Assembly (NCBI GenBank): GCA_015232575.1
Contig: JADFZL010000003.1
Coordinates: forward strand, 192,001 to 256,000
Length of the DNA stretch: 64,000 bases
Reading direction: 5' to 3'
From: Candidatus Rifleibacteriota bacterium
GTDB taxonomy: Bacteria; Muiribacteriota; Ozemobacteria; Ozemobacterales; Ozemobacteraceae
The notes beneath the pieces are model-generated. The model had not been told where the DNA came from. It saw only the letters and a list, made by a program, of their open reading frames with translations, and did no database searches. The translations under genes and the position numbers were made by a program. Every line of letters starts with the position of its first letter. Position 1 is the first letter of the stretch. Of this stretch, positions 10,725 through 37,934 are shown piece after piece.

Positions 10725-10786
10725 ATTTTCCTGAAAATAATTAAATGCAGTCAATTATTGAATGATTGCATTTCAATAAAAATCAT

Positions 10787-10878: not shown

Positions 10879-10972
10879 ATGCTTGTCTGTTAAGCGGACA
10901 AAATACTAAATGAAAAGAAACAAAAAGTCAACGAGTATTTTAATAATGAATTGAAAGCTGAATCATGGATTA

Positions 10973-19971: not shown

Positions 19972-22656
19972 CTATGCTTTTTCCAGTTTACATGCGCAGA
20001 CCTTGTATTCCGGTATTTTTGCTTCCGGATCAAGTGCGTTAATGGTTAGTTTGTTGGCAGGAGCTTCGATGAAGTGGAAAGGCATAAAAGCAGTTCCTTT
20101 AGGAATTCGCTTTGTAACGAAAGCCTTAGTGGTAACGCTGCCGCGGCGGGTTGTTACTTTAACGGTTCCACTGTTTGAAACGCCTAGTTCAACGGCATCT
20201 TCTACTGAAATCATTACATGAGGTCCGGCAAGATTATTCAATCCTTCGGATTTTCTTGTCATGGTTCCGGTGTGGAAGTGCTGTAGAATTCTTCCGGTTG
20301 TCAGATAAACCGGATAGTCTTTGTCGGGTAATTCAGCGGGATCTTTGAATGGAATTGGGAATAATGTCCCTTTTCCCTTGGTGAATTTACCAATATGAAG
20401 AACAGGAGTACCAGGGTGTTCTTTTGTTGGACATGGCCAATGCAGACCTTTTCCTTCAAGTCTTTTGTAATCTAATCCGGCATAGCTCGGAGTGCATTTG
20501 GTCAATTCATCAAAGATATCTTCTGCGGTATTATATTTCCAGTTGTGACCCATTTTATTGGCCAGAAGTTGATGAATCTGCCAGTCATCTTTTGCTTCCC
20601 CGGGTGGTTCAACGGCTTTGTGCAACAATTGTACACGGCGTTCAGTATTAGTGAAGGTACCAAGTTTTTCGGGCCATGTACTGGCAGGAAGTACAACATG
20701 TGCCATTTTAGCTGTTTCCGTAAGGAAAATGTCTTCGACAACCAGGAAATCAAGCTTTTTGAGGGCTTCTTCAACATGGTGAAGATCTGGATCACTCAGC
20801 ATCGGATTTTCACCCATAATGTAGAATGACTTTACTTCTCCCTTGCCAGCTTTGTCTATGGCAACTGTAAGCGTTAATCCATTTTCAGCACTGAGCTGAC
20901 AACCCCAGAACTTTTCGAACTTTTCCTTGATTTCAGGAAGTGTAACTTTCTGATAAGCAGTGTAAACGACTGGAAGTCCGCCAACGTCACATGCGCCCTG
21001 GACGTTTGACTGTCCACGCAGCGGATTAACACCACCACCAACTTTACCCATATTGCCACAAATCATTTGCAGATTTGCACAAGATTTAACATTGTCAACA
21101 CCAGTGGTGTGCTGGGTAATGCCCATTGCGTAATAAATCGCTGCTGACTTTGCTTTTCCAAACATTTCTGCAATTGCTTCGAGGGTTTTTGCCGGGATAC
21201 CAGAAATCTTCTCAACGTGCTCAGGAGTGTATTTTTCTACTTCTGCTTTCAACGCTTCAAAACCTTCACATCTTTCAGCGATGAATTCTTTGTCTTCCCA
21301 GCCATTCTTGATGATTACATGCATAATTCCGTTAAGAACAGCAACATCTGTACCTGGTCTCTGAGCGGCATAGATTTTGGCGTAATCTGCCATTTTAATT
21401 TGTTTGGGATCAATAACAATTATTTTCAACCCATGTTTTGATGCCTTTTTCAAGCGGGCAGCAATTACCGGATGGGCTTCAGATGTATCGGAACCAATTA
21501 TTAGAGCAACTTCACTTTTACCAACTCCTGCGATATCATTTGTCATAGCTCCAGAACCAAAAGATGCGGCCAGACCGGCCACAGTGGAGCTGTGTCATAA
21601 TCGCGCACAGTGATCGACGTTATTCGTCCCTATCACTGTGCGAAAGAACTTTTGAAAAGTGTAGTTTTCTTCGTTTGTAACTTTTGCTGAAGAAAAACCC
21701 ATTAAAGAATTTGGACCATGTTTTTGTTTAATTTCAGAAAACTTTGTCGCTACTAATTCAATTGCTTCATCCCATGAAGCTTTTCTGAAAGAGCCATCAT
21801 TGTTTCTGATTAAAGGTGTAGTAAGTCTTTCCTTGTGATCTACAAAGTCATATCCAAAGCGGCCTTTTACACAAAGCATACCGTAATTGGATGGGGCGCT
21901 TTCAACGCCGTTGACCCGGACAATCTTGTTGATTTTCCGGTCGACATGAATTTCCATCTGGCAACCTACACCACAATAAGGACAAACTGAAGTCACTTTG
22001 TCAGTTTCCCAGTAACGCGCCATTCCTTTTGCTTTTTTCTCAGTTATTGCGCCAACTGGACAAATCTGAGAACATTCACCACACTGGACACAGGTGGAAT
22101 CACCCATCTTCTTGTCATCATCAAAAATGACTTCAGTGTTGTGTCCTCTGTAACCAAAATTCAAAACATCGTTTGTAACAGTATTCTGACATGCAGAAAC
22201 GCATCTTCCACAAGCGATGCACTTGTTTCGATCGACCTGAATAAATTCTGAGCTGTCATCAAGATTCGGTTCAAAATCAGCATAGTTCAATGAAGGTTTT
22301 TCAATGCCAAGATAATATGCGGCATCCTGAAGTTCGCACTTGCCGTTTTGCTGACAGGCAATACAATCGTGCGTTCCATTAGAAAGCAGAAGATCAATAA
22401 CAAGTTTCTGACCATCCACAGCTTTCTGGGATCTCGTCTGAATCTTCATTCCCTCTTTCACAATTACTGAACAGGATGTCTGAAGACCTTTCATCCCTTC
22501 AACCTCTACTACGCAGGCTCGGCATTTCCCTGCCACGCCAACCTTCTCATGGTAACAAAGAGAAGGAATATAAATTCCATTTTTCCTTGCGGCCTGAAGA
22601 ATGGTTTGCCCTTCTTCAGCCTGCAATTGCTTGTCATTGATGGTAATTAGCATCAA
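19972..22656 (-). CDS. fdhA: Formate dehydrogenase catalytic subunit, selenocysteine-containing (UGA-Sec at 21597..21595); the track shows it as two ORFs
   Basis: ORFs 21595..22656 and 19972..21582 are in the same frame, separated only by TGA. The joined translation VDHCARL-U-HSSTVAGLAAS aligns with the Cys paralogue's VDHCARL-C-HASTVAGL. A SECIS-like structure follows the UGA. Confidence 0.85.
21541..21594 (-). ncRNA. SECIS-like stem-loop immediately 3' of the fdhA UGA
   Basis: The RNA reads CACAG-CUCCA-CUGUG, then a 7-bp stem AGCUCCA...UGGAGCU enclosing GGCC-GGUCU-GGCC. The equivalent region of the Cys paralogue lacks this complementarity. Confidence 0.5.
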
Positions 22657-22763
22657 TCCCTCCTTTGAAGAATTTTCAAAAATTCACCTGTAAGTTATAA
22701 AATCAATATTTACCAGCTTAAAGAATAATTCTAACGCAATTTCGACATCGATCACCTGTTCGC

Positions 22764-23450
22764 TTAGGATATACAGCCTGTCAGATCAGATTTCGAAAGA
22801 GCATATTTAAAAAATACTGACCTTGTGTTAAAAGAACCGCTATCTGAATTATCGACTGCAAAATTATAATCTTGTGGTACATTTATATTGAAAAGTATTT
22901 TTTCCCAGTCCATGTCAGAATTGCGAGCATCATATTCTTTGACTGAAACTTCAGAAAAAATAGACCTGATTGAAAACAATCCTGCACTTATAGCTTTATG
23001 CGTTGCAGGGAGACAATTCGTTGAATAAAGCGAAAACAATGGATTCAAACCACCGATAGTTCTTGGAATCACAACATCCATTTTTTCAGAAATACTCAGA
23101 AGAAAGGACGCAGCAGATTCTGAAATAAATGGCATGTCACAACCTGCAAGAAGAGCATAATCAGTATTTACATGATCAAGCCCGGTCATAAGCCCTCCCA
23201 GAGGTCCAGTGCAGAGGCGATCTTCAATGAAGTTAAAACCATCATTTTCTGGAAACTTTTCTCCTTCTGGAAAGCCAACAATATGAACTCTCTGGGTAAA
23301 ACAGGCAAGTTTCTTTGCGACATATAACCACATAGGAAAGCCTTGCCAGGACAGGAACTGTTTTTTTCTCCCCATTCTGATACTTTGTCCACCGACAAGC
23401 AAAAGTGCTTCAATTGGCAATCGGCAGTTTTTTTCATTTGTATCAGTCAC
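22764..23450 (-). CDS. mobA: Molybdenum cofactor guanylyltransferase MobA-like
   Basis: LLVGGQSIRMG motif typical of MobA. 228 aa. Confidence 0.7.
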   Translation of the reverse strand: MTDTNEKNCRLPIEALLLVGGQSIRMGRKKQFLSWQGFPMWLYVAKKLACFTQRVHIVGFPEGEKFPENDGFNFIEDRLCTGPLGGLMTGLDHVNTDYALLAGCDMPFISESAASFLLSISEKMDVVIPRTIGGLNPLFSLYSTNCLPATHKAISAGLFSIRSIFSEVSVKEYDARNSDMDWEKILFNINVPQDYNFAVDNSDSGSFNTRSVFFKYALSKSDLTGCIS

Positions 23451-23533
23451 TTGTTTTGTCCATCACTTTAATATTTCGAGTTACAGAAAATTCTAACATA
23501 ATCAATAATTAGTGTCAAAAAAGAACCCGGAGC

Positions 23534-24331
23534 TCATGAAACGCGCCATGAATGTGTATAAACGTTGAACCGTTCTCCTCTTGTAAAACCAATGGTAGTA
23601 AGATTAAGTGAATCAGCAAGCTGCAATGCTCCGGAAGTTGGTGCTGAAGGAGAAATTAGTATGGGAAATTTACCTCTGACCGCTTTTGTAACAATTTCTG
23701 TGCTGATTCTTCCTGTTTCCAGCATTATCGCTTTTGAATCTGATGGCCATCTGTTTTGCAGTTGCCACCCCAGAACCTTATCAACAGCATTGTGTCTGCC
23801 TATATCATCACAGACGAAAAGAATGTTATCGTTTTCAGCAATGGCAGCTGAGTGAACTCCGCCCGTTTTCCTGAAAGTAGATGATGCATTCTGAAGTTTT
23901 TTAACCAGTGAAAGAACTACATCTGAAGATATTCTTACATCAGATTCTATTTTCTGAAAAAATTTTGAATATATCGGAGAAACGGTAGTTAAACATCTAC
24001 CACAGCCTGTTGCGACAGATCGTACTGAATTAAAAAGATTTCCCTGTAAGCCTTCTTTCAGTATAATCTCAATCGAATTTGTCCGTTCGGAATAATTAAC
24101 ACTGTTAACGTCGCTCAAATTTTCTATTATACATTCACTGAAAAGAAATCCCAGTGCAAGCTGTTCTATGTAAGTCGGATTATATATAAGACGTGCAATT
24201 TCATTTCCGTTTACAAAAACAGCTAAAATACTTTCTTTTATTATCAGATCATCAATTTGAGAAAATTTTCCATTTTCAAATTTTTTTGCCTGATAATTCT
24301 CTATTGCAAATTCACTGCATTTTTCAACCAT
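23534..24331 (-). CDS. fdhD: Formate dehydrogenase accessory sulfurtransferase FdhD
   Basis: FdhD family signature (GGVHSAA...DIGRHNAVDK). Confidence 0.8.
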   Translation of the reverse strand: MVEKCSEFAIENYQAKKFENGKFSQIDDLIIKESILAVFVNGNEIARLIYNPTYIEQLALGFLFSECIIENLSDVNSVNYSERTNSIEIILKEGLQGNLFNSVRSVATGCGRCLTTVSPIYSKFFQKIESDVRISSDVVLSLVKKLQNASSTFRKTGGVHSAAIAENDNILFVCDDIGRHNAVDKVLGWQLQNRWPSDSKAIMLETGRISTEIVTKAVRGKFPILISPSAPTSGALQLADSLNLTTIGFTRGERFNVYTHSWRVS

Positions 24332-24357
24332 TACATGAAGCCCTTGTCGTTAAGGTT

Positions 24358-24402
24358 TTCCCCTCTCAAGCTGCCTAATGGTGAGCTTTCTTGAGAGGGG
24401 AA
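24358..24402 (-). other. Perfect 13-bp inverted repeat (TTCCCCTCTCAAG...CTTGAGAGGGGAA) between fdhB and fdhD
   Basis: Read directly. There is no U-run, so it is more likely an intra-operon stabiliser or processing hairpin than a terminator. Confidence 0.5.
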
Positions 24403-24413
24403 TGTGAAAATAC

Positions 24414-26132
24414 TTATTTAATCAATGCTTCAAATTCATGTCTGAACTTTTGGACCATCGCTTCGATTGGCATTGCAAAAGCATCACCAAGCGGACATAG
24501 AGTAAGCCCTTTTATTTTTCCGCACATTTTTAGAATTGTGTCAATATCAGACTTTGAGCCGTTACCATGAAGAATTCTCTTGATAAGAGCTTTTACTGTG
24601 CTGGAACCTTCGCGACATGGTGTGCATTGACCGCAGGATTCGTGTGCATAGAATTCAATAGTGCGATATGCAACTTCGGGAATCGAAACAGTATCATTAA
24701 TAACCATGATTCCGCCAGAACCAAGCATTGTTCCTGCCTTCTGGCAACTGTCATAATCCATCTTCAATTCGTTAATTTCGGAAGCAGTCAAGATCGGTAC
24801 AGAAAGACCACCAACGATTACACCTTTAATTTTGCCTTTTACTCCGCCTGCTGCATCAAGAATTTTCTTAAGCGGTGTTCCAAGTGGGAATTCAAATGCT
24901 CCCGGTTTATTTACATGGCCACTTACACCATAAATTTTGGGGCCGTAATTACCGACAGTTCCGATCTTTTTGAATTCATCTGCGCCTTTTTCAATGATAA
25001 CCGGTACCAGAGCCAAAGATTCGACATTGTTGATAATGGTTGGACATCCATATAGGCCCTGAATTGCAGGGAAAGGTGGCTTGAGTCTTGGATTTCCACG
25101 ATTTCCTTCAAGGGATTCCATAAGCGCGGTTTCATCACCACAAACATAAGATCCTGCGCCTTTGTGAACTATAATTTCAACGTGCTTCAATAATCCGGCA
25201 TCTTTTGCCTGTTTAACTGCTTTTTCAAGAATATCGGCTATCCACCTGAATTCGCCACGTATGTATATGAAAGATTTTTTTGAACCTATAGCGTATGCTG
25301 ATATAGCGATGCCTTCAATAAGAAGATGCGGATCATATTCCATTATCTGTCGATCTTTGAATGTGCCCGGCTCTCCTTCATCTGCGTTGCAAATCAAATA
25401 AACTGGTTTTGTGTTATTCTTTGGAAGAAAGCTCCATTTCAAGCCTGTCGGAAAACCTGCTCCACCTCGACCTCTAAGCTGTGCATCTTTTACCATGGAA
25501 ACAATTTCAGCGGGTTCAATCGTCAGGGCTTTTTTCAAAGCCTCATATCCGCCATTTTTTTGATATACAGCCAAGTCAGTTGCTTTCTTATTTCCGCGAT
25601 TTTTAAGAAGGACATTACATTCAGATGCAAAAACCGATTCATCAACCTTTTCAGGGACTTTTCCCTTCCTGAGTTCTGCGATGATTTTATCAATTTTTTC
25701 GGTTGTCATGTTTTCATAGTAGATATCATTGATTTGTACAACCGGGCATGTCCCGCATGAGCCCAAATCCTGAACTTCTGTCAAAGTAAAAAGTCCGTCA
25801 GAAGTTGTTTCTCCGGGTTTTATTCCAAGTGAAGTCTTGAGGTGATTTAAGATTTTGTCGGAACCAGCCAGAAATGCAGGAATGTTGACATCAACCTGAA
25901 TATGAAATTTTCCGATTGGTTTGGTATTAAACATTGTGTAAAAAGTGGCAACCCCAAACGCTTTTCCTTCTGTAACGCCAATCTGGGTTGCAACTTCCTG
26001 TATCATTTCAGCTGACAGATGATTTCCGTTATCTCTCTGTGCAAGATCTAAAGCCGGTATCAATGCAGAAATACGGCTTGGGTAGCTATTTGCAATTGAA
26101 TCTATCTTTTCTCTAACGCTTGTATTCATCAA
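24414..26132 (-). CDS. fdhB: Formate dehydrogenase NAD(P)H-binding subunit (fused NuoE-like thioredoxin-like 2Fe-2S + NuoF-like FMN/NAD/4Fe-4S)
   Basis: 572 aa with NuoE-like N-terminal and NuoF-like core motifs (GRGGAGFPTG, CGQCTPCREG). Confidence 0.8.
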   Translation of the reverse strand: MMNTSVREKIDSIANSYPSRISALIPALDLAQRDNGNHLSAEMIQEVATQIGVTEGKAFGVATFYTMFNTKPIGKFHIQVDVNIPAFLAGSDKILNHLKTSLGIKPGETTSDGLFTLTEVQDLGSCGTCPVVQINDIYYENMTTEKIDKIIAELRKGKVPEKVDESVFASECNVLLKNRGNKKATDLAVYQKNGGYEALKKALTIEPAEIVSMVKDAQLRGRGGAGFPTGLKWSFLPKNNTKPVYLICNADEGEPGTFKDRQIMEYDPHLLIEGIAISAYAIGSKKSFIYIRGEFRWIADILEKAVKQAKDAGLLKHVEIIVHKGAGSYVCGDETALMESLEGNRGNPRLKPPFPAIQGLYGCPTIINNVESLALVPVIIEKGADEFKKIGTVGNYGPKIYGVSGHVNKPGAFEFPLGTPLKKILDAAGGVKGKIKGVIVGGLSVPILTASEINELKMDYDSCQKAGTMLGSGGIMVINDTVSIPEVAYRTIEFYAHESCGQCTPCREGSSTVKALIKRILHGNGSKSDIDTILKMCGKIKGLTLCPLGDAFAMPIEAMVQKFRHEFEALIK

Positions 26133-26500
26133 GAATATTCTCCTGTTAAAATTCTGCCAATTCGAAAAAAAAGAACAAAGTTAAACCCATTGATTTTCAT
26201 TCACCACTCAGCATAATAATAATGAAAATAACTTTGTGAAATTTATCATAAATTGGATATTTTTTCTATCAGTTTCTTACATATTATTTTTTTTCCCGAT
26301 ATATCCCTTATATTTTTATTGACAAATACAAATGTTTCGTGTGAAAATACAAAAATAATACCATTCAGCAAAAATGATTGAAAACAGTGAAAATGCCTTT
26401 TGCACAATTATTTTTAGGTGATATCAGCACCTGAGAAAAAGTGCGAATTTCGTTTTTGTTTTTTGAAATAAAAGAAAACACAAAAAGGAGTTTTGCAGGT

Positions 26501-26887
26501 ATGGGAAAAAAAATTCTTCTTGTTGATGACGATGTTGATTTTGTAAACCTGAACAGAGAAATACTTGAAAATGCGGGTTATTCCGTTTCTTTTGCATATA
26601 ATGGTGAAGAAGGTATGAAGGCAATTAAAGCTTCAAAACCAGATCTTCTCGTTCTAGATGTAATGATGACAACAATAGTTGAGGGATTTGATTTTGCAGA
26701 TAAACTTCAGGAAATCCCGGAATTCAAAGATATTCCTGTCATTATGCTGACCGGAATGACAAAAACTCCTCAATTCCCCGAAAGTTTCCAGAAAGTCCTC
26801 GGAAGAACATGGACAGCTGCTGCATATCTTGAAAAACCAGTGAAACCAGAAAAACTTGTCAGTGAAGTTAAGAAAATCCTGGGTTGA
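26501..26887 (+). CDS. Stand-alone response-regulator receiver domain protein (CheY-like)
   Basis: KILLVDDD...LLVLDVMM receiver motifs. Start ATG 26501 after AAAAGGAG; the track ORF starts earlier. Confidence 0.75.
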   Translation: MGKKILLVDDDVDFVNLNREILENAGYSVSFAYNGEEGMKAIKASKPDLLVLDVMMTTIVEGFDFADKLQEIPEFKDIPVIMLTGMTKTPQFPESFQKVLGRTWTAAAYLEKPVKPEKLVSEVKKILG

Positions 26888-27315
26888 TTTTTTAACAGAA
26901 TACCTGGTATTTTTTGTAAGACTCTCAGCCTTAGCTTTGGCTGAGAGTTTTTATTTGCTCGAAATTTCTCGGTTTTCTGGCAGAACGAAAGTCAATCGAA
27001 AAATACCTGTTTTTTTCCAAAGAGTGGCAATTCATTAACTTCTTAATTGTCCAAGAGTGCTTTTAGCAGTGATAACATACCGAGATCCCATTTTCTCCGA
27101 ACTATCTGTTGGATGCTAAATTTATTAGAAGCAGCATGATTAGTGGCATAGATTTTGTGATTGTGTTTCTAAAAACCATAAGTCTTAGAAAGAAATGAAC
27201 CAATAAATACCAATACTAACTATTCCTAACCAAAAGTACTTGAAATTTATATAGCCTTGGCATATAATCCTTATGATGTTTTAATAAAATATCGTATTCA
27301 AACCATGAGGAATAT

Positions 27316-27915
27316 ATGCATAAAAAAGTCATTTTTCAGGTTTTATGTCTTTCTTTGTTAAATAATCGTTTTAATTCTTACTACAAACCCCCAAAACAAA
27401 ATATTGCAGCCCTTTCATTGACGTTTTTCATTAATTTCTGTTTTTTTATGTTGTCACCGTCTTTTGCTGATCAACCCGATGAGAGAAATCTAAACACACG
27501 ACGACATCACTCTGCAAGCGCATCTGCTTCAGAAATATCAAATTTTGGAAAATCTGAAAAAAGCGATTATTGTGTTGTACTTGAATTTAATAGCAGCGAA
27601 ATTGCATCCTTTTCAGCAGACGATCTTGATAAATTTCCCAGGAAAACTTTTGAATGCCCAGAGGCTGGTAAATCTCTGTGTGGATCATCATTAAAGGGAA
27701 TTCTATCTTCAGCCGGAATCAAAGAATTTAAAGAAGTTACAATAAGCGGTTTTTCAAAAGGCAGAATGTTCACTGCTGAAATCACTCTTAAATCTGAAGA
27801 GATCGATGAAAATGTAATTCTTGCATTAAGTAACAGAAGAACGGCAAAACTTGCAAGTCCTAAAATTCCATTCAAGAACTGGATAATTGACGTGGAGAGG
27901 ATTTCGGTCAAATGA
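27316..27915 (+). CDS. Hypothetical secreted protein
   Basis: Hydrophobic N-terminus. Its stop overlaps the next start (ATGA). Confidence 0.4.
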   Translation: MHKKVIFQVLCLSLLNNRFNSYYKPPKQNIAALSLTFFINFCFFMLSPSFADQPDERNLNTRRHHSASASASEISNFGKSEKSDYCVVLEFNSSEIASFSADDLDKFPRKTFECPEAGKSLCGSSLKGILSSAGIKEFKEVTISGFSKGRMFTAEITLKSEEIDENVILALSNRRTAKLASPKIPFKNWIIDVERISVK

Positions 27916-28676
27916 GCGAAATAGTCTATATTGGGGTTGATGATACCGATGTTCTGGGAAGCCCTGGAACTGGAAAGATCGCCAGGGGAATTGCGGAAAT
28001 GCTTTTTGAGAAAGGTTTGGCGAAATCGCTTGGCGTAAGTCGTCATCAGCTTCTCGTCGATCCGAGGGTTAAATACACTTCGCATAACAGTTGCAAAGGA
28101 ATTGCAGTAATTACAGATAACTTTCCCGTTGTGCTGGTAAAACCATGTTCTGATTATATTAAAGACCATTTTCAGCCGGGTTCAGATCCGGGTCTGTGTA
28201 TATGCTCTGAAAAAAATATTACACCAGAGATACTTGCATACTCAGTAAAAGCCGAGACTGAATTCATTCAGAAAGACGAGGCTTACACATTAGTTTCCGG
28301 AAAGGATATTTTCCTCACAGAGCTTGGCGGTGACGGTGGTGGAGTGATCGGAGCTCTTGCCGCTGTTGGTTTGCGGGCTGGCGGAAACAATGGCAGACTT
28401 GTTGACATCAGAGGAGTGCGGGACATTTCTGGAAAAATTTCTGTGATGGAAATAAAATTCAGAACTGATATTGTCGCTGTCTCTGATATTGATGGAAACG
28501 AACTTTCTAACTTAGAAATAGTTGAAAGCCTTTCTTGGATACGCCCAAATCTTGTTAATGGAAAGCCAGTGCTGAAGGTAATACTTTCAGAAGAGTTGAC
28601 AAACGTAGAAGGCAAAAGAATCTGGATTCCGGCTGAAAGAGAAATGAAAATGACAAAAGGAGATAAAAATGAGTAA
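27912..28676 (+). CDS. Hypothetical protein with a TiaS-kinase-like (IGxDDTD...) N-terminal domain
   Basis: N-terminal YIGVDDTDVLGSPGTG...LLVDPRVKYTSHN resembles the IGIDDTDS...NPNVPFKTRGN signature of the TiaS kinase-type domain, as I recall it. Gly-rich LGGDGGGVIGALAAVG segment. Confidence 0.3.
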   Translation: MSEIVYIGVDDTDVLGSPGTGKIARGIAEMLFEKGLAKSLGVSRHQLLVDPRVKYTSHNSCKGIAVITDNFPVVLVKPCSDYIKDHFQPGSDPGLCICSEKNITPEILAYSVKAETEFIQKDEAYTLVSGKDIFLTELGGDGGGVIGALAAVGLRAGGNNGRLVDIRGVRDISGKISVMEIKFRTDIVAVSDIDGNELSNLEIVESLSWIRPNLVNGKPVLKVILSEELTNVEGKRIWIPAEREMKMTKGDKNE

Positions 28677-29271
28677 AAAAACCAGAGCTATTTCTATTTC
28701 GGAAGTAATTTTCGAAGAAGCAAAAGATTTCAATACCAAAACATATCACTTATTTGTGATTGTTGCTGGTCTTATTGTATCAGGGTTGGTTACTGCTTTT
28801 GCAAAAAAATTGACGTTCCATCTTGGCATACCTGGCCACAGCGCTATTTTATGGCTTGGTTCAATGATTGCTTGCCGGAACATAATCGGAAATAAAGGTG
28901 CTGGGACGCTTATCGGAATCAGCACAGCACTATGGGGTGTTCCGATGGGACTGAACAATGCAGTAATATATAACATTGGTTTGTACGGCGCTGCTGGTAT
29001 TGTTCTGGACCTCATTGCAATGGTTCCGCAGATTAATACTTCTAAGGTCACCAGTGCAGTACTTTCTGGAATAGCTGCACACGCAATGAAATTCTGCTTT
29101 TTAGTTTGCAGCACTCTCAGCAGCACAGTGATAAAGAAATTTGTATTATTTGGATTCCTTCAGTCGGCTTTTCTGCATGTATTTTTTGGCGCTATCGCAG
29201 GCCTTACAGGAATATTAGGGTATTCAATTTTCCAACAACTTTTTCAAAAGAAAAGAACGTCTGATCAATAA
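28669..29271 (+). CDS. Hypothetical integral membrane protein
   Basis: About five hydrophobic helices. Start overlaps the previous gene. Confidence 0.4.
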   Translation: MSKKTRAISISEVIFEEAKDFNTKTYHLFVIVAGLIVSGLVTAFAKKLTFHLGIPGHSAILWLGSMIACRNIIGNKGAGTLIGISTALWGVPMGLNNAVIYNIGLYGAAGIVLDLIAMVPQINTSKVTSAVLSGIAAHAMKFCFLVCSTLSSTVIKKFVLFGFLQSAFLHVFFGAIAGLTGILGYSIFQQLFQKKRTSDQ

Positions 29272-29380
29272 TTAGTAGGAAGTCGTATACGAAGCATCCT
29301 GCCGCGTTTGTCTTAAGCGGCTGGAAGTCGCTTCTACTTTTGTATGCAAAATCATAAATATGTGGGCAAATTTGCATGTT

Positions 29381-29432
29381 ACTGAGAGATCTCATAAATG
29401 CATGATTTCTCCTTTCGGTCGAAATGACATAG
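29381..29432. repeat. Intergenic palindromic repeat (MITE-like family), copy C (partial, inverted orientation)
   Basis: Reverse complement TGTCATTTCGACCGAAAGGAGAAATCATGCATTTATGAGATCTCTCAGT matches the left half of copy D. Confidence 0.6.
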
Positions 29433-29599
29433 TTATGGCTCCTTTATTATGATTTGCTGTGCTAGTTTTTGCATTATATGACATCGGCGCCTTAATTTAT
29501 TGGCAGATAGGGCAAGGTTGAGAAAAAATTATTGAGGCGAAACTTTGTAAGTATTGTTTTAAAAATTATAATATTCAAGGTTAATTAAGGAGAAAGTTA

Positions 29600-31876
29600 A
29601 TGTTTCGGGTCATTCTTGTTTCAATTTTTTCAGTTTTTATTGTATTTCCGGGAATTCTTTCAGCGGCAGATGAAGAAAATTATTCCGGGCGTTACACTCT
29701 GGACGAAATAGTTATAGAAGAAAGTCGTCCGGAACTCGAAAGCAATGGCAGAATGAGAACGATTTATTCTGAAGAATTGCGCGAAAGAGGAGTGAGGACT
29801 CTGGATGAAGCGCTTAAACTGATTCCTGGCCTGCTTATAAGAACAGGTGCCGGTGGAGTTCCAAGAATTGATATCCGCGGATACAAAGCCAGGCATGTTC
29901 TGCTTCTTCTGGACGGCGTTTCCTTAAATTCAACTTATGACGGACAGCTTGATCCGAGAATTATTCCAGTTGAGATTATTAAAAAAATTAAAGTCACCTA
30001 CGGAAGCGGATCTTCACAATATGGTTCAGGTGCACTTGGTGGAGTAATTAACATAATTACCAGGCGTGGTGAAGCCAAAAATGAAGTTCGATTACAGGAA
30101 GAAGTCGGAACTGGACTTAAACACTATGGAAGTTTCAATGCTTCGGGCAAAGATGGCGACTTCGATTATTTCCTTGGAGTAACCAATAAGCAGCGTGATG
30201 GCCTGGAACTTTCTGATTCGTTTTCACCAACAAATGCTGAAAATGGTGGAAAACGTGAAAACAGCGATTTCAGGAACTCTTCTCTCTTTCTTCGAATTGG
30301 ATTAACTCCGTCTGAAAAATGGCAGTGGGGCTTAACTCTGGCCCGAATGACCTCTGACTACGGGTTATCACCATTAACTATTGATAACAGCTCTGATATT
30401 TTTGCAAACAAAATCAAATATGAGAGAGTTGATAATTCTGACAGTCATATCTTTCAGCTTACAACTTCTTATGATTGCGCTGGTCCATGGGAGTTCAGAT
30501 TGTGGTTTTTTCAGAATTCTCAGATAGAGGAAACCAACGGCTACGACAACGCAAAATATGAAGGTATGTCTGACCCGGCAATAAAAGGTACATATCATCA
30601 GGGTTCAAAGGTTCTTATTCGTGGCGGAACAGTTCAGGCTGACAGAGCTATGGGAAATGACAGCTATCTTACAGTAAGTCTTTCGACAAAACATGATGAA
30701 TGGAATGCTGCTGGAAAAATCAGAGACGTTCAGGTAAATTCAAGTCTTCTTGGAAGTATCATGTCCGCAGGCGGTAAAGGCACTGGTGGCGGAAGCGGCG
30801 GTGGCGGTGGAAGTTCAGGAACTGGAGCAGACGACGGTTCAAGTGGTATGACGGGAACGACTGGAACCACGGAAACTACAGATGGAGATTCTGTCTCAGG
30901 AACTGATACTGGTGTAACTACTGAAAGCTCGAATACTGGTACAGATACATCTTCTGGCACAGGCACTGGTGGCGGCGGTGGAAAAGGAACCGGAGCTGGA
31001 ACAGAAAAAAACACAGTAAAACAGTATGATATTCGCAACTTTGAAAACATTCAAAGCCAGGAAATAAATACTCTTGCTCTGGAATATAACTGCAAACCGA
31101 TAGATAAATTGAACCTTTCCGTTAGCGGCAATTTGTGCAATGCCAGCAGTGATAAGCGTGATGATGAATCTCAAGGTGAATTCAGCCTTGGTTTTTCACG
31201 TGATCTTTCTGAAAAAACCCTTCTTCATGGAGTATTGGCACGCAAGATAAGATTTCCCACTGTTCAGCAGTTGTATGATGAAACAGGTGGCAATCTGAAT
31301 CTTAAAACGGAATGCTCAATGAACTACGAACTCGGAGTATTGCATGAAATGTTCAAAAACAGCCGTTTCGGCGTTACATTATTTCAGAGTGCTGTTGATA
31401 ATTACATTGAAAAACAAGATAGTACAAGTAGATATGAAAATTTCGACGAATATCTGTTTAAAGGTGTTGAGTTTTCCCTGAATCATAAATTTAATTCACC
31501 ATTAACTCTTGAGACAACGCTTTCACTTATGGACTCAGAAGATCAAACTTCAAACAGCGGTCGTGATGAACTTCAATACAGACCCAAAGTGAAATGTACT
31601 CTTTCAGGTACTTATAATTTCCACAATGGAAGTCTTGTACATCTCGAAATGCTTCATCTGAACGGACAGCACTATTATTCGCGCACATTGCCGCTTCAAA
31701 AGGCGTCTTTAAATAATATTACTGTTACAAATTTGCGCGTATCTAAACCGATCAGATATTACAGTCTGGTTATCTATGCCGGAGCTGATAACGTTTTCGA
31801 TCAGAATTACGAAACTGCATACGGAGTTCCGGCTGCCGGAAGATTCGCTTACACAGGAATTCAGGCAACTTTCTGA
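29600..31876 (+). CDS. TonB-dependent outer-membrane receptor with an internal Gly/Ser/Thr-rich insertion
   Basis: Signal peptide, plug domain (IPGLLIRTGAGGVPRIDIRGY), and a C-terminal aromatic terminus (AYTGIQATF). Low-complexity insert GKGTGGGSGGGGGSSGTGADDGSSGMTGTTGTTETT... at roughly 30760..31010. Confidence 0.8.
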   Translation: MFRVILVSIFSVFIVFPGILSAADEENYSGRYTLDEIVIEESRPELESNGRMRTIYSEELRERGVRTLDEALKLIPGLLIRTGAGGVPRIDIRGYKARHVLLLLDGVSLNSTYDGQLDPRIIPVEIIKKIKVTYGSGSSQYGSGALGGVINIITRRGEAKNEVRLQEEVGTGLKHYGSFNASGKDGDFDYFLGVTNKQRDGLELSDSFSPTNAENGGKRENSDFRNSSLFLRIGLTPSEKWQWGLTLARMTSDYGLSPLTIDNSSDIFANKIKYERVDNSDSHIFQLTTSYDCAGPWEFRLWFFQNSQIEETNGYDNAKYEGMSDPAIKGTYHQGSKVLIRGGTVQADRAMGNDSYLTVSLSTKHDEWNAAGKIRDVQVNSSLLGSIMSAGGKGTGGGSGGGGGSSGTGADDGSSGMTGTTGTTETTDGDSVSGTDTGVTTESSNTGTDTSSGTGTGGGGGKGTGAGTEKNTVKQYDIRNFENIQSQEINTLALEYNCKPIDKLNLSVSGNLCNASSDKRDDESQGEFSLGFSRDLSEKTLLHGVLARKIRFPTVQQLYDETGGNLNLKTECSMNYELGVLHEMFKNSRFGVTLFQSAVDNYIEKQDSTSRYENFDEYLFKGVEFSLNHKFNSPLTLETTLSLMDSEDQTSNSGRDELQYRPKVKCTLSGTYNFHNGSLVHLEMLHLNGQHYYSRTLPLQKASLNNITVTNLRVSKPIRYYSLVIYAGADNVFDQNYETAYGVPAAGRFAYTGIQATF

Positions 31877-31959
31877 TTTTTTTGATTGTGCAAAAATAAT
31901 ATTTCCTCACACAACCCTCTCTGCTGAAAATAAAAAGGGTAGGGAAGTGTGAGGTTTTT

Positions 31960-32838
31960 CTACTTCAGCGATTGCGGTTTCCAGGAAATACTGCCCATTG
32001 TAGAATAGTCGTATCCTGCAAATTTTCCTGATTGATTGTTCAGAGAAGCCGGGTCGAAGAAATTAATGAGTTCCCGTATTTTATGGGTTTCCCAGAGATC
32101 AACAGGAATGATCATATCAAAGGGTTCATTGAATACTGGAATGTAATGAAGGTTGAGAATTTCTGCTACGTGTCGAATTCCAAATGATGCATCAGCTTCC
32201 TCTGAACATACTTTCGACCCTGCAGAAATGTGTGATTGAGCTTCAATACAATTTTGTCTGTCATCAACCACAAGCCCATTCTCTTTCATAAGAAAATCTA
32301 TCAGAATACGAGTGCCAGAACCTTTGTTGCGAGTGGCGAATTTCAGCTTGCGATCAAATATATCTTTGAAATTCTTAATTTTATGAGGATTATCCGGAGG
32401 AAGAAAAAGTCCCTGCTCTCGTGTAAATAATTTTAATACAACGAATTCTTCCCGATTCAGATAACGGTCAAGATACCAGTGCGAATGCTTTCCCTCAAGA
32501 TCAAGAATATGAACACAGCAAACAGCAGCCCGACCCATTTTAAGCAACTGTAAACCGTTTATGCTTCCTACTGAAGCATAAAAAACGGTGTTTTTGGACG
32601 TTTTATTGTAATTATCAATAATGACTTTAAGTAAAACATCATCGCTTCCTGCAATTAGAATATTCTGTTCGGAAGCCGTATTTTCACGGATCCAGCGATC
32701 TATTATCTCTCTGCTGAAAACCAGTTTTCCTCCAATTCTTGTAAACGGAATTTCATTATCTTTGACTAATTGATAGACCTTTTTCTCATTTATGTTCAGA
32801 TAAGAAGCAATGTCTTTTGCAGAAAGAATCTCCATCAT
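31960..32838 (-). CDS. HTH (excisionase/MerR-like) + periplasmic-binding-protein-like domain transcriptional regulator (possible oxyanion-responsive)
   Basis: N-terminal DIASYLNINEKKVYQLVKDNEIPFTRIGGKLVF HTH, and a C-terminal PBP-like fold as in ModE-type or tungstate-type regulators. Confidence 0.5.
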   Translation of the reverse strand: MMEILSAKDIASYLNINEKKVYQLVKDNEIPFTRIGGKLVFSREIIDRWIRENTASEQNILIAGSDDVLLKVIIDNYNKTSKNTVFYASVGSINGLQLLKMGRAAVCCVHILDLEGKHSHWYLDRYLNREEFVVLKLFTREQGLFLPPDNPHKIKNFKDIFDRKLKFATRNKGSGTRILIDFLMKENGLVVDDRQNCIEAQSHISAGSKVCSEEADASFGIRHVAEILNLHYIPVFNEPFDMIIPVDLWETHKIRELINFFDPASLNNQSGKFAGYDYSTMGSISWKPQSLK

Positions 32839-33059
32839 TTTCCCCCTTCAGTCGGAATACTGCTTTATTAGAACTTATCCTATCAGTCATGACCTGTATT
32901 TTCAAGTATTTAGTTGATGCTATATCTGTTAATTCTGCATTAATCATTTTTCTATTTGTTTTTAATCAGCGGAATTAGTGGAAAATCAAAAATAGTGGTA
33001 TAATGTGAGCCATTAACCACATGTTTTATGAATTTATTAACAAATAAAAGATTTTATAA

Positions 33060-36000
33060 ATGAGAGGTTTTATGATTATGAGAAAGAATATATTCTTTTT
33101 TCTTTTTCTTTTATTGCTCCCTATTACATGTTTGATTATTTTGGGTTGTAGTGGCGGTGGCAGTGATGCAACCGGAGTCGGAGGTTTAAATACGGTTGGT
33201 CCAGTTGAGGAAGGACCGATTGTACAACGCTTAAATTTTTTTGCTAAAGACTTAGCTGAAGGAAATTTAATAGCTGCACAGTCTCATTTCTCTCCAACCT
33301 TTCGTTCAAATTCCTCTGGACAATTGCAGTCTCTTGCTGTTTACGACTTTGGAAGGAAAATTGGATCAAGTACTGATAACACCTTATTTCTCTTTGAAAT
33401 CGCACCTGGTGGAATAACTCAGCTTTCCACTGTTGATGCTACTGTCAAAGCCAATTTTATAATGAATGATTCCACCCGGATCGTGCTGGTCTTTCAGATG
33501 ATAAAGCATTACGGTGATTGGCTGATTGACGATATAAAAGTAACGATTTCTTCGGGTGAAAGTTTTCCTGCCAGCACTTTTTTTCCTATTCAATCTGGCG
33601 ATTACTGGAAATTTCAGATAAGCGATTCGAGAATAGGCGAAATTCGAGATTTTACAATTACTGTTTCTTCGGAATCACGCGTTATTGATGGCAAAAGAGT
33701 TGTGTATCTGGAATGTTCATCAGCTGTAAGGCAATCTGTCGGGGTTTCTTCGAGAGCATCTATTCTCAATCCTGGTGGAATTAACCGTTTAACATGGGGT
33801 TTCTCAAATGACGGTGGTTTGTGGAATTATGGTGCCCTTTCTGATTCATCCTATTCATTCAATGATGGAAAACCTCTGAAAATTCTTGACGAGCAATTCA
33901 GAGCCGGAGATATCGCAACCTGGACTGTCAGTGAAAAATTCGGGAACCTTGTTTATACAAAACAAATCGTAATACAGGTTAAACAGCCAGTACTAATTAA
34001 TTCAGTATTTGGTTCAGTTAAGGCTTTAACAATACGCTTTGTATGGCACTATCTAAATGGTATGTCACCTGATGGTGTTTTGGCAGGCGGAGAAGAATGG
34101 TATTTACGTGAGAATTTTGGACTTATCGGCTTTATGGAGTTTGATCCCGATTCAGGAGAAAGCTTGACTAAATCTGAATGTGTAGATGTGAAGATTGATG
34201 GAGTTGTCCAGAATCAAGTTGCGATGGTTCTCATGAAAACTACACTTCCTGAAAGCATTTCTGGACAATCTTATTCAAACCCCTTCACAGTAATAGGCGG
34301 TGTACCGCCGTTTTCTTTCCGGATTGCATCTGGAACCCTTCCTGATGGTATAACCCTGCTTGACTCAGGTGTTCTTTCCGGAATTCCGCTTTCAGGAGGA
34401 AAATATAACATTTCTATAAATGTAACAGATTCATCTGGACTCTCTGATTATGAAGATTTCGAACTCTCGGTAATACCAATGAAAATATCCTGTGTTCTTC
34501 CATTGACAGCATTTCTGAGTGAGAGTTGGAACCAGAAACTAACAGTGGTAGGTGGTGTTCAGCCTGTTACCTGGAAAATTTCCTCTGGAGCACTTCCGAC
34601 TGGTTTAAAGATAGTTCAGCCTGATATTATATCTGGTATCATTACAGCTACGGGGACATTTGAATTTACCTTGAAAGCTTCTGATGCAAATAGTTTTGCA
34701 GTTGAAAAAGAATATACTGTCCAGGTAAGCGATGACCTGGTCATTACTGCTGAGATTCCCTCTTCAGTGACTGTAAATTCCCTTATAAATGGTAAGTATA
34801 TTTCTTCTGGCGGAAATCCTCCATATTTTTACAGCATCCAGGAAGGAACTCTTCCAAAAGGTGTTGTTTTGTCTAATGCCGGTGTTTTGTCAGGAATTCC
34901 TGTTGAAAGTGGAATTTTCAACTTTGTTGTGAGGGTTTTGGATTCCAAAGACAGGACAGCTCAAACTACATCTATTCTTAAAGTTCAATCACCTGAAGAA
35001 AATTCCCTTATTATTTCGACATCTTCTATCGCTCAGCAGACCAACATTTTTGCGTCTTTCACTGCATCTTTATCAGCAAGTGGAGCGGCGGGAGGATTGC
35101 ATTGGGAAAAGTTGTCTGGTAATATTCCGCCAGGCATGACTCTTCTGCCAAATGGCTCTCTTACGGGTGTTCCAACGAGCGTTGGCTCATATTCGTTTGT
35201 TGTCAAAGCAACTGATTCACTTGGAAAATCTGGAACTGCAGAAATTAAATTAAATGTGGTTAACGATTTAAACGTAATAGCGTCAATTCCGACAACTGGC
35301 CAGGTAAACTCTTCTTTTTCAGGTTCGTTTAATGCCAGTGGTGGATTTCCGCCTTATTTGTTTCACATTTCAAGCGGAAATCTTCCGTCTGGACTAGCTT
35401 TGAGTGCAGATGGTAAGATTTCAGGTACTCTTACGGCCGAGGGCAATTATACATTTTCAGTTACAGTAACTGATTCAAAAGGTTTATTAGCAATTAATAA
35501 TGCTTCAGTACAAGTTATTCCGGCTAATCCAGCACCTGTTCCCAATCCTGATCCTGTACCTGAGGCTACTTTTTCAATCGTTATTTCATCAGTAATTCCA
35601 ACCGCAAATCTTTGTGCAACGTACAGCGCAAATCTGCAATTCCTGAATGGTTCAGCTCCAATTTCTTCGACAATTTCTTCAGGAAGCCTGCCGGATGGAA
35701 TAACTCTTTCCGATAACTGCTTATCTGGTATTCCGATTACTTCTGGAACATATTTCTTTGAAATTATTGCTTCAGATACTCTTGGAAAAATTGCCACCGC
35801 TACTTTTTCAATTCAGGTTAGTAACTCTACTAATCCAAATCCTCCCATAATTTCAATAGCAGCAACTTTGAGTAACACCCCGGAGAATCCAACGAATCAG
35901 ACAACCGCATCAATAACAGTAGGCGGAATAGACGTTGTAAAGTATTCTTACAGTCTTAACGATGGAACATGGAGCCCTGAAACACCCATTTCAACTATTT

Positions 36001-37934
36001 TGAATCTGACAAATCTCACATCTTCCGAACATTATCTTGAAGTAATCGGTATAGATGCACTTGGCAATATGCAAAGTAAAGAATCAGCAACAACATTCAC
36101 CTGGACCATTGATACAACTGCAAAAGTTGCAGTATTAAGTAATAAGCCTGCAAATCCGACGAATATAGCTTCAACAGCAATAACAGTTGGTGGAACAGGC
36201 GTTGTAAAGTATTCTTACAGCCTCGACAATGGTACATGGAGTCCTGAAACACCAATTTCCACGGTAGTGAATCTATCAAGTCTCGCTTCCGGTGAACATT
36301 CACTGAAAGTAATCGGCATAGATGCCATTGGAAATATACAAAGTAAGGAATCAGCGACAACATTCACCTGGACCATAGATACAGCTGCAAAAGTTGCAGT
36401 ATTAAACAATAAGCCGGCTAATCCGACAAATCAGACATCCGTATCAATAGCAGTCGGCGGAACAGGTGTTGTAAAGTATTCGTACAGTCTCGACAATAGC
36501 ACATGGAGCCCTGAAATTCCCGTCTCCACACCCTTGGATCTTTCTGGTCTGTCGTCCTCAGAACATTCTCTGAAAGTTATCGGTATAGACGCTCTTGGTA
36601 ACATCCAAAGTAAAGAATCATCAACCTCATTTATCTGGACTATCGACACGGCAGCAAAATTAGCGGTATTAAGCAATATGCCCAGTAATATTACAAAGCA
36701 GACATCCGTAGAAATATCTGTAGGTGGAACGGGCGTTGTAAGGTATTCTTACAGCCTTGACAATGGCACTTGGAGCGCAGAAATTCCGGTTTCTACTTTA
36801 TTAAGCTTGACAAACCTTGCACATGGAAATCATAAGCTTCTTGTTTTGGGTATAGACGAGTTAAATAATTGGCAATCACAAAGTAATCCAACCAATTTTG
36901 AATGGAAAATTGATACCGTTCAGCCAGCGGTTGTTTTATCTGATGACCATGATGATTCAATTGTTTGTGATTCAGACATGGTAACAATAACCGGAACGTT
37001 TGCTGATACAGATGAAATAGATGAAGTGAATCCTCCGACAATTTCAATCGGCAATATTATAACTGGCGCAGCCATGGATAAAACAGATAATCTTCACTGG
37101 ACTTACGTTTGGAATGTACCAACTGCTAATAATGGAAATCATGCAGTATCAGTCAATGCAAAAGATAGATCAGGAAATTCTTGTACCGCTGCTACTGGCA
37201 GGATCTTATACACCATAGACAATAACCTTCCAGCGTCTCCCATAATCAATGCTAATGCCATTAATGAGAATTTGTCCGGGCGCGGCAATAAAAAGGACAC
37301 TATAAACACCAAACTGAAATCAGATTTTAGTAACTTCAAAGTAAACATAGCAAATACAAATCCCGGAAACAAAGCTGGAACATTGTTTATTAAATTGACC
37401 GATTCTGCTTTACCATCTCATAGTTATACCACTTCAGGGGAAGCAATTTCAGAAAACGCTCCGGCCGCAGATATCGGAAAATTTTCTCCAAATGCTCTGA
37501 ATAATTTTGCTGATGGCGACCTGAACATTGAAGCCTGGATTATTGATGCGGTTGGAAATGAATCGAACCATACTATAGTGAAAAAAACATCGGCGTTAAG
37601 TACTACACCTCCAGTAGTTACTGCACCAACGAACATTCCACAAAAGCTGAAAAAGGGCGATGTTTCTACATCAACAGTTCGTTCGTCGAAGCCTGGAAAT
37701 ATCTACCTCATCAGGAAAGGTGAAACTGCAATTATTCAGGCTGAGATTGACGTTGCAATTGCATCCTGGAAGGCTTTTTTAGGAAAAGCAGATGCGTCAC
37801 CAAATGTTCCTTATACCATCGTCATTCCACCTGATTTGCTTTCCGGAGTATATGATATTATCGCTGTGGATGATGTTGGAAATGTTTCATCGACTGCGAA
37901 TGGCTGGTTGACCGTTGATGGAGATGTCTTTTGA
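33060..37934 (+). CDS. Giant cell-surface lipoprotein / adhesin-like protein with putative-Ig (He_PIG-like) repeats and tandem ~90-aa repeats
   Basis: 1,624 aa. Lipobox (LIILGC). Repeated PPFSFRIASGTLPDGITL...GIP motifs. Five tandem repeats (VVKYSYSLDNGTWSPE...IGIDALGNIQSKES...WTIDT) seen also as ~270-bp DNA repeats at roughly 35850..36900. Confidence 0.75.
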   Translation: MRGFMIMRKNIFFFLFLLLLPITCLIILGCSGGGSDATGVGGLNTVGPVEEGPIVQRLNFFAKDLAEGNLIAAQSHFSPTFRSNSSGQLQSLAVYDFGRKIGSSTDNTLFLFEIAPGGITQLSTVDATVKANFIMNDSTRIVLVFQMIKHYGDWLIDDIKVTISSGESFPASTFFPIQSGDYWKFQISDSRIGEIRDFTITVSSESRVIDGKRVVYLECSSAVRQSVGVSSRASILNPGGINRLTWGFSNDGGLWNYGALSDSSYSFNDGKPLKILDEQFRAGDIATWTVSEKFGNLVYTKQIVIQVKQPVLINSVFGSVKALTIRFVWHYLNGMSPDGVLAGGEEWYLRENFGLIGFMEFDPDSGESLTKSECVDVKIDGVVQNQVAMVLMKTTLPESISGQSYSNPFTVIGGVPPFSFRIASGTLPDGITLLDSGVLSGIPLSGGKYNISINVTDSSGLSDYEDFELSVIPMKISCVLPLTAFLSESWNQKLTVVGGVQPVTWKISSGALPTGLKIVQPDIISGIITATGTFEFTLKASDANSFAVEKEYTVQVSDDLVITAEIPSSVTVNSLINGKYISSGGNPPYFYSIQEGTLPKGVVLSNAGVLSGIPVESGIFNFVVRVLDSKDRTAQTTSILKVQSPEENSLIISTSSIAQQTNIFASFTASLSASGAAGGLHWEKLSGNIPPGMTLLPNGSLTGVPTSVGSYSFVVKATDSLGKSGTAEIKLNVVNDLNVIASIPTTGQVNSSFSGSFNASGGFPPYLFHISSGNLPSGLALSADGKISGTLTAEGNYTFSVTVTDSKGLLAINNASVQVIPANPAPVPNPDPVPEATFSIVISSVIPTANLCATYSANLQFLNGSAPISSTISSGSLPDGITLSDNCLSGIPITSGTYFFEIIASDTLGKIATATFSIQVSNSTNPNPPIISIAATLSNTPENPTNQTTASITVGGIDVVKYSYSLNDGTWSPETPISTILNLTNLTSSEHYLEVIGIDALGNMQSKESATTFTWTIDTTAKVAVLSNKPANPTNIASTAITVGGTGVVKYSYSLDNGTWSPETPISTVVNLSSLASGEHSLKVIGIDAIGNIQSKESATTFTWTIDTAAKVAVLNNKPANPTNQTSVSIAVGGTGVVKYSYSLDNSTWSPEIPVSTPLDLSGLSSSEHSLKVIGIDALGNIQSKESSTSFIWTIDTAAKLAVLSNMPSNITKQTSVEISVGGTGVVRYSYSLDNGTWSAEIPVSTLLSLTNLAHGNHKLLVLGIDELNNWQSQSNPTNFEWKIDTVQPAVVLSDDHDDSIVCDSDMVTITGTFADTDEIDEVNPPTISIGNIITGAAMDKTDNLHWTYVWNVPTANNGNHAVSVNAKDRSGNSCTAATGRILYTIDNNLPASPIINANAINENLSGRGNKKDTINTKLKSDFSNFKVNIANTNPGNKAGTLFIKLTDSALPSHSYTTSGEAISENAPAADIGKFSPNALNNFADGDLNIEAWIIDAVGNESNHTIVKKTSALSTTPPVVTAPTNIPQKLKKGDVSTSTVRSSKPGNIYLIRKGETAIIQAEIDVAIASWKAFLGKADASPNVPYTIVIPPDLLSGVYDIIAVDDVGNVSSTANGWLTVDGDVF

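Follow-up and report, generated by a model that had tools for sequence, protein, structure and literature searches.

A TiaS kinase-domain homologue encoded between an exported and a membrane protein, and its probable link to tungsten and molybdenum uptake

A 64,000-nucleotide stretch of DNA from a Candidatus Rifleibacteriota bacterium (assembly GCA_015232575.1, contig JADFZL010000003.1, positions 192,001 to 256,000, forward strand), called the window here, carries three overlapping genes, orfA, orfB and orfC. The middle product resembles the kinase domain of TiaS, the tRNA(Ile2) 2-agmatinylcytidine synthetase. What would such a domain do between an exported and a membrane protein? The initial annotation proposed an undescribed envelope-associated, nucleotide-dependent modification system linked to a nearby CheY-like receiver. 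The analysis presented here suggests a different answer: orfABC is probably the core of an uptake module linked to tungsten/molybdenum (W/Mo) cofactors, with an ATP-dependent, TiaS-like step in the cytoplasm. The combination of parts and the W/Mo link of the TiaS-like enzyme are new; the parts themselves (S component, SUOX-fold binder, TonB receptor, TCKD fold) are of kinds already known.

The four open reading frames (ORFs) delimited by the initial annotation, namely a receiver-domain gene and the trio, were confirmed in place. The trio is laid out as follows, in window positions:

orfA, 27316..27915, + strand: predicted exported or membrane-anchored protein with a C-terminal mini SUOX/PruR-fold domain
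orfB, 27912..28676, + strand: TiaS-TCKD-like domain followed by a beta-rich C-terminal domain, predicted cytoplasmic
orfC, 28669..29271, + strand: polytopic membrane protein resembling the S component of energy-coupling factor (ECF) transporters

These genes are translationally coupled. The stop of orfA and the start of orfB share the sequence ATGA (…GTC AAA TGA / ATG AGC…), orfB and orfC overlap by 8 nt, and Shine-Dalgarno-like sequences precede the starts of both orfB and orfC.

The 254-aa orfB product is 100% identical to HQM10_06010 of a Candidatus Riflebacteria metagenome-assembled genome. Residues 1-160 form the TiaS-TCKD-like part and the remainder the beta-rich domain, and hydrophobicity analysis found zero membrane segments and no signal. 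TiaS alone was returned when orfB was compared by phmmer with all PDB sequences (~1e-4), and again with a 40-sequence family profile (3u02, 1.6e-8; 3au7, 4.9e-7). With the AlphaFold (AF2) model (predicted local distance difference test, pLDDT, 92; predicted template modelling score, pTM, 0.89), Foldseek ranked TiaS entries at the top (5e-11, probability 1.0). Residues D10, D11, D13 and T20 align with D8, D9, D11 and T18 of TiaS and are invariant in 40 homologues, as are the motifs GTG, RxQLL, TSHNS, GSDPG, GxIGALA and GNxGR. The DDxD residues of TiaS are reported to bind Mg-ATP, and its T18 to be autophosphorylated (Terasaka et al. 2011; Osawa et al. 2011); orfB presumably binds ATP and Mg as well. 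By sequence as well as by predicted fold, the TCKD kinase domain of TiaS has a stand-alone bacterial homologue in orfB, as had been proposed.

The likeness to TiaS (3amt, 3amu, 3au7, 4rvz, 3u02; PF22641) covers ~150-170 homologous residues of the same fold, and IGxDDTD, the Thr18-equivalent Thr, a D/NPG motif and GxIGALAAVG are found in both. Unlike TiaS, orfB has another, beta-rich C-terminal domain, is bacterial, and lies near transporter and W/Mo genes with no translation link. The KTRGNG of TiaS is replaced by an invariant YTSHNS in the orfB family. The alignment to TiaS spans residues 4-155 only, the match to Pfam TiaS_TCKD is marginal (0.081), and no other TiaS domain was matched. Its score of 23.9 bits is far under the cut-off of 600 for the TiaS equivalog NF040849 and the FLD, OB and zinc-ribbon domains are missing, so that by sequence orfB is not a TiaS orthologue. 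The best NCBIfam match is methanogenesis marker 11 (TIGR03280, 8.8e-9; TiaS, 1.3e-5), a likewise uncharacterised protein whose C-terminal half (model positions 135-283) has the TCKD-like domain of orfB. Marker 11 differs in its extra N-terminal half and its restriction to methanogens, and orfB reaches 34.9 bits against a cut-off of 255.8.

A single-sequence search with orfB retrieved 6,567 proteins (E <= 0.001) among representatives of 90%-identity clusters, and a profile search retrieved 1,164 representatives of 50%-identity clusters. Of the 150 best-scoring relatives, almost all have lengths of 225-270 aa; some are shorter and apparently partial. As candidates for Rosetta-stone fusions, the six longest (301-428 aa) had no recognisable extra domain on inspection; some resemble mis-called ORFs and two have a short Cys-rich tail. 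Such a C-terminal tail in the distant relatives P0358 and P0364 (301-316 aa; …SCFNCRLRRWT…CC) could be a zinc-binding element, recalling the zinc ribbon of TiaS. A Cys-x-Cys pair of orfB was considered as a metal site and given little weight, as distant members do not conserve it. Wherever the 120 best matches bear a name it is "hypothetical protein", and most are nameless. The models of Pfam, NCBIfam (June 2026) and PADLOC leave orfA, orfB and orfC uncovered, and full-text searching of the literature brought up no account of the family, which agrees with its initial annotation as uncharacterised. The tungsten storage protein Tub is a TOBE protein unrelated to orfABC (PMC11980592), and the literature retrieved on uptake of the molybdenum cofactor (Moco) concerned nematodes only.

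Residues 30-48 of the orfA product form a strongly hydrophobic segment that ends in SFA, and there is no twin-arginine motif at the N-terminus. The orfA sequence had no Pfam, NCBIfam or PDB match and retrieved only itself in a single-sequence homologue search; a profile search gave 1,313 relatives. Residues ~85-199, a domain of ~115 aa, were modelled with pLDDT > 90, and the structures that the model matches are those of the Moco-binding SUOX fold and of the PruR proteins, which bind pterins in the periplasm (PDB entry, protein, match score):

2blf, SorA, 12.5
2xts, SoxC, 12.4
1xdq, YedY, 12.0
7rkb, PruR, 11.9
7kp2, PruR, 11.3
next unrelated fold, 5.6 or less

On this model, orfA, the secreted partner of the initial annotation, has a predicted ligand-binding domain of the SUOX/PruR fold. 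The predicted domain shares the Moco-domain fold of SUOX-family molybdoenzymes (2blf, 1xdq, 1sox) and differs from them in its small size, where they have a full Moco domain together with dimerisation or heme domains, in lacking a twin-arginine (Tat) signal and in lacking the Mo-ligating Cys, no Cys being conserved in alignments of 27 or 40 orfA sequences. Because the twin-arginine signal is absent, any ligand must be acquired outside the cell. Conserved Lys/Arg residues are K119, R148, K150, R174, K178 and R187. PruR resembles orfA in being small and exported and in having no conserved Mo-ligating Cys (PMC11194511). Compared with PruR (7rkb, 7kp2), orfA has ~115 residues against ~140, and there is no sequence-level alignment on which the PW motif or the sandwich residues N102, Y104 and W160 could be mapped. 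The partners of orfA are a transporter and a kinase-like protein, whereas that of PruR is a DcpA-type cyclic di-GMP enzyme; orfA is not part of a PruR-DcpA system. In Dehalococcoidales, lipoproteins with two or three tandem Cys-less SUOX-like (PF00174) domains lie between orfC and WtpABC (L007, 8003-9583; L008, 7349-8990; L009, 4874-6337, - strand; L010, 4191-5720; L numbers denote the loci compared below), and these may be additional extracytoplasmic proteins that bind ligands of the same class. A Bacteroidota lipoprotein, "c6", was considered as an orfA analogue and discarded, as hhalign found no relation.

The orfC product has at least five hydrophobic segments, and matches within its family suggest a membrane protein like the ECF S components, which are small polytopic proteins of ~180-200 aa. 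PF09819, the YkoE-type S component of the ECF system YkoEDC, was matched by 11 of 43 family members (best 2.4e-8). EcfT and a fused EcfAA' are co-encoded in some phyla, and ~16 loci encode EcfAA' fusion-EcfT-orfA-orfC. No EcfT or EcfA was found near orfABC in the window. Ni/Co ECF systems have extracytoplasmic accessory proteins, and orfA would parallel those of the Ni systems (NikMN(KL)QO/CbiMNQO). The orfABC set departs from ECF systems in that most lineages have no EcfT or EcfA nearby and the cytoplasmic TiaS-like enzyme is always present. We know of no ECF system for W/Mo species or Moco-type pterins. PnuC-NadR, a carrier with a kinase trap, likewise joins a small membrane carrier to a cytoplasmic ATP-using enzyme; the protein families are unrelated, so that the analogy is one of logic only. 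The conserved pairing of carrier and ATP-using enzyme suggests, by this analogy, metabolic trapping.

Gene neighbourhoods were compared in one genome per species, giving 80 loci which, with the window, make 81 from more than ten phyla. The 80 belong to Riflebacteria, Dehalococcoidia, Anaerolineae, Bacteroidota, Spirochaetota, Gammaproteobacteria, Syntrophomonadaceae, Methanobacterium and others. Within 3 kb of orfB and on the same strand, orfC is found in 59/81 loci, in 44 of them directly adjacent; orfA is near orfB in 29/81. The initial annotation had staked its case on structural similarity to the TiaS kinase domain and on co-occurrence of the three genes, and both were found. A TonB-dependent receptor stands beside orfB/orfC in 35/81 loci, nearly always on the same strand, and 74/81 have some transporter component near orfB. 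Five layouts were distinguished:

Layout 1 (Riflebacteria, Dehalococcoidia): orfA-orfB-orfC, with or without a TonB receptor and a TunR-like regulator
Layout 2 (Anaerolineae, Spirochaetota): orfB-EcfAA' fusion (TIGR04520, 2.6e-85)-EcfT (PF02361, 3.8e-22)-orfA-orfC
Layout 3 (Bacteroidota): ModE-repressor-domain protein (TIGR00637, 1e-18)-orfB-orfC-lipoprotein-TonB receptor-protein with a type IX secretion system (T9SS) tail
Layout 4 (Gammaproteobacteria; L032, L067, L071): TonB receptor-orfB-orfC-TupA-like
Layout 5 (Syntrophomonadaceae, Dehalococcoidales, Methanobacterium): FecCD-ATP-binding cassette (ABC) ATPase-Peripla_BP_2-orfB, the last in one to three copies

Gene calls made independently for the isolate Dehalogenimonas sp. 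THU2 confirmed layout 5. In Syntrophomonadaceae, two or three tandem orfB paralogues follow the FecCD-ABC-BtuF-type importer (L040, 5992-8263; L070, L064, L074), and in L040 they are followed by an XdhC-family maturation factor for aldehyde:ferredoxin oxidoreductase (AOR).

Another recurrent feature of these neighbourhoods is W/Mo metabolism. Within 6 kb of orfB, 40/81 loci have at least one W/Mo-linked gene (TupABC, WtpABC, TunR-like, ModE-N, AOR, MoaA/C, MoeA, MobB, FdhD, XdhC), and a random 12-kb stretch would hold one in a few per cent of cases by a rough estimate made without a computed control. In L030, orfB sits inside a transporter operon, TunR-like-TupA (7.9e-72)-orfB-TupB-WtpC-like. 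In L008, orfABC and two Cys-less SUOX-like lipoproteins precede WtpA-WtpB-WtpC, with WtpA above its cut-off (314 bits vs 242.75). L003 reads orfABC-WtpC-like-MoaA-MoaC, and L004 has MobA/MobB beside orfABC-NifS-FdhD-MoeA-MoeA. AOR is adjacent in 6 loci (1e-95), an XdhC-type AOR maturation factor is present in 2 and a ModE-repressor domain in 8. TupA-like genes lie directly beside orfB in 13 loci. A divergent amino-acid-kinase/UMP-kinase-like protein (PF00696) lies beside it in 5 (L011, L012, L050, L057 and L078; e.g. L050, 4474-5352); it belongs to the superfamily of the ATP-dependent Mo storage protein. The WtpC-like ABC ATPase of L003 (7141-8187) is an orphan: full-length, with TOBE domains and 403 bits, it lies directly 3' of orfC and is followed by MoaA and MoaC, with neither a permease nor a binding protein in the vicinity. 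With TupABC, WtpABC and ModABC and their regulators TunR and ModE, orfABC shares neighbourhoods and presumably also a regulon and the purpose of supplying W/Mo enzymes. Those are type I ABC importers with periplasmic-binding-protein (PBP)-fold binders, and the orfABC proteins match none of their families.

A mechanism in five steps can be proposed. A TonB receptor would admit a scarce W/Mo-containing ligand to the periplasm, where orfA, exported by a Sec-type signal and built on its Cys-less mini SUOX/PruR fold, would bind it. The family relation and operon context of orfC suggest that it would move the ligand over the inner membrane, alone or with EcfT/EcfAA'. In the cytoplasm, orfB may phosphorylate or adenylylate the incoming species with ATP, as its homology would allow, and the ligand, thereby trapped and primed, would enter formate dehydrogenase or AOR through assembly of the MoeA/MobA/FdhD type. 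The adjacent TunR-like or ModE-like regulator would control expression.

What might the ligand be? A pterin-bound or chelated W/Mo species, such as Moco, its tungsten counterpart (Wco) or a precursor, is our tentative preference, because the only known ligands of the fold of orfA are pterins, because ECF, BtuCDF-type and TonB systems handle cofactor-sized ligands, and because a second importer of free tungstate beside TupABC/WtpABC would be redundant. The fuller claim, that bacteria and some archaea have a dedicated salvage route for the W/Mo pyranopterin cofactor or its precursor, running from TonB receptor to orfA and orfC and ending in ATP-dependent re-activation by orfB, is possible and in our view rather doubtful. 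It is also possible, though not probable, that orfABC is an alternative high-affinity route for free tungstate (or molybdate), with orfA or a TupA-like protein binding the anion and orfC conducting it. In that case orfB would use ATP to activate or sequester it, as an adenylyl- or phospho-tungstate-like species or by loading of the Mo-storage type, for W-selective insertion by MoeA. The place of orfB within the tup operon of L030 and beside TupA-like genes, the TupA-like proteins that stand in for orfA in Gammaproteobacteria, the WtpABC downstream of orfABC, the orphan TOBE-bearing ATPase of L003 and the amino-acid-kinase neighbours all fit such a route. The nearby MoaA/MoaC/MoeA would imply that the cell makes its own pterin and is limited by the metal, and the conserved Lys/Arg of orfA could bind an anion. 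This route would nevertheless add a second tungstate importer to operons that already hold one, a small anion normally needs no TonB receptor, and free oxyanions are not known to be handled by ECF S components, BtuCDF-type importers or SUOX-fold domains. The data do not separate the pterin and free-oxyanion versions, and the latter is still a strong rival.

The two remaining explanations have far less in their favour. An envelope system in which orfB, under control of the receiver, modifies an envelope or secreted component with orfA and orfC is very unlikely. It would account for the translational coupling of a TiaS-kinase homologue to exported and membrane proteins, but orfB, with neither membrane segment nor signal, cannot reach the envelope, and orfA has a ligand-binding fold in its predicted model. 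The neighbours are ECF, TonB, BtuF/FecCD, TupABC/WtpABC, TunR/ModE and AOR genes and the Moco-assembly genes MoaA/MoaC/MoeA/MobB/FdhD/XdhC, that is, transporters and W/Mo cofactor genes with no envelope biogenesis genes among them. The receiver is transcriptionally separate and is not conserved. None of orfA, orfB and orfC matched a PADLOC defence or modification family, and a defence system was discarded on that ground as well. Least credible of all is a bacterial tRNA modifier that activates cytidine C2 as TiaS does, its gene order being incidental. TiaS is the sole detectable relative of orfB, yet the domains missing from orfB (254 aa vs ~420) are those that bind tRNA and agmatine, its alignment, TCKD match and equivalog score are as poor as described above, and the order with transporter genes is kept over more than ten phyla.

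Several points weigh against the uptake module itself. The functional case is built throughout on genomic context and predicted structure. The fold match of orfA to SUOX and PruR proteins has no sequence-level counterpart in the PDB, the window orfC has no PF09819 match, and the orfC profile matched nothing in the PDB. The chemistry of orfB may differ from that of TiaS because of the exchange of KTRGNG for YTSHNS. Its substrate need not be the cargo of orfC, since there are also orfB genes without orfA or orfC, either within tupABC-like operons or behind BtuF-FecCD systems. Free tungstate accords with the TupABC/WtpABC neighbours no less well than a pterin does. The MoaA/MoaC/MoeA genes of several loci mean that the pterin can be made de novo, and salvage is therefore not obligatory. 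Free Moco is, in addition, very labile.

How scarce W and Mo are acquired, discriminated and delivered into pyranopterin cofactors is only partly understood, and to our knowledge three PBP-dependent ABC importers make up the known routes of entry. The module described here is spread over anaerobic phyla including Dehalococcoidia, Bacteroidota, syntrophs and methanogens. Should it import or activate a W/Mo species, it would represent a new step or route in W/Mo cofactor biology and a second chemistry for the TiaS fold, the only known relative of the orfB enzyme being one that modifies tRNA. It would also provide genetic markers for W/Mo limitation under anoxia and for cofactor cross-feeding in communities, for instance among organohalide respirers or gut Bacteroidales. 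If the salvage version is true, prokaryotes would gain their first Moco/Wco transporter and the TiaS kinase fold its first role outside tRNA.

The surroundings of orfABC in the window are of the same kind:

formate dehydrogenase alpha, Cys paralogue, 16554-19235, - strand: HCARLCHAS, with Cys at the selenocysteine position
W/Mo enzyme cluster, 19972..26132, - strand: upstream of the trio and divergent from it, made up of the next four genes
selenocysteine-containing formate dehydrogenase alpha, 19972-22656, - strand: in-frame TGA at codon 354, HCARL[U]HSSTVAGL
MobA-like, 22764-23450, - strand: family match
FdhD, 23534-24331, - strand: family match
NuoEF-like, 24414-26132, - strand: family match
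TonB-dependent outer-membrane receptor, 29600..31876, + strand: BtuB/heme-type, plug domain 1.6e-20
TunR-like regulator, 31960..32838, - strand: HTH_17 (5e-13) and PBP_like (PF12727, 2.6e-45)

The divergent cluster likely comprises the consumers of the cofactor, and the TonB receptor is likely the outer-membrane entry step. This receptor matches the TonB-B12 model at 9.1e-48, under its cut-off, and falls below all equivalog cut-offs. Its residues ~385-470 hold a Gly/Ser/Thr-rich low-complexity insert of ~90 residues (GGKGTGGGSGGGGGSSGTG…) in the barrel region. The TunR-like regulator matches the C-terminal domain of NF011068, "molybdopterin biosynthesis protein" (9.6e-48), and its PBP domain is of the type fused to MoeA; orthologues lie divergent from orfA in other Riflebacteria (L005, L006, L019).

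Transcription signals set the trio apart from the gene before it:

receiver-domain gene, 26501..26887, + strand: single-domain response regulator (PF00072, 5.7e-21), outside the module
terminator between the receiver gene and orfA, 26918-26951: 13-bp stem
sigma-70-like promoter of orfABC, 27240..27268, + strand: TTGAAA-17-TATAAT, 11/12, the best match of the region
ribosome-binding site of orfA, GAGGAA, 27308-27313, + strand: sequence match
weak terminator-like hairpin 3' of orfC, 29315..29333, + strand: 8-bp stem with a poor T tail, from a consensus scan only

The promoter, a consensus match only and no evidence of function, lies 48 nt 5' of the orfA ATG. The link to the receiver made in the initial annotation has to be abandoned, because the spacer of ~430 nt holds both a terminator and a promoter and no comparable receiver recurs beside orfB: BLAST against the 80 related loci gave 4 weak matches only, at other places in the loci and in much larger proteins. 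The receiver is a real gene, separate from the orfABC module. No riboswitch (Moco, cobalamin or other) was found 5' of orfA in 26000-33500 with Rfam, at the gathering threshold and at E up to 1. Inspection of inverted repeats and k-mers in the window and Riflebacteria promoters for a shared TunR-like operator turned up nothing but AT-rich strings of the TTGTAA type, without enrichment (7 found vs 8.2 expected), and the idea was discarded. Antisense ORFs at 27567-28169 (- strand) and 28283-28615 (- strand) overlap orfA/orfB and orfB, respectively; their apparent conservation (clusters 30 and 2) mirrors the conserved coding sequence of the sense strand and does not speak for their being genes. 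Just past the TunR-like regulator, 33060-37934 (+ strand) encodes a 1624-aa protein of He_PIG, Big_13 and Y_Y_Y Ig-like repeats. The selenocysteine machinery is grouped at 7363-10879 (- strand) and comprises SelB (7363-9321), SelA (9309-10754) and tRNA-Sec (10787-10879; Rfam, 58.6 bits).

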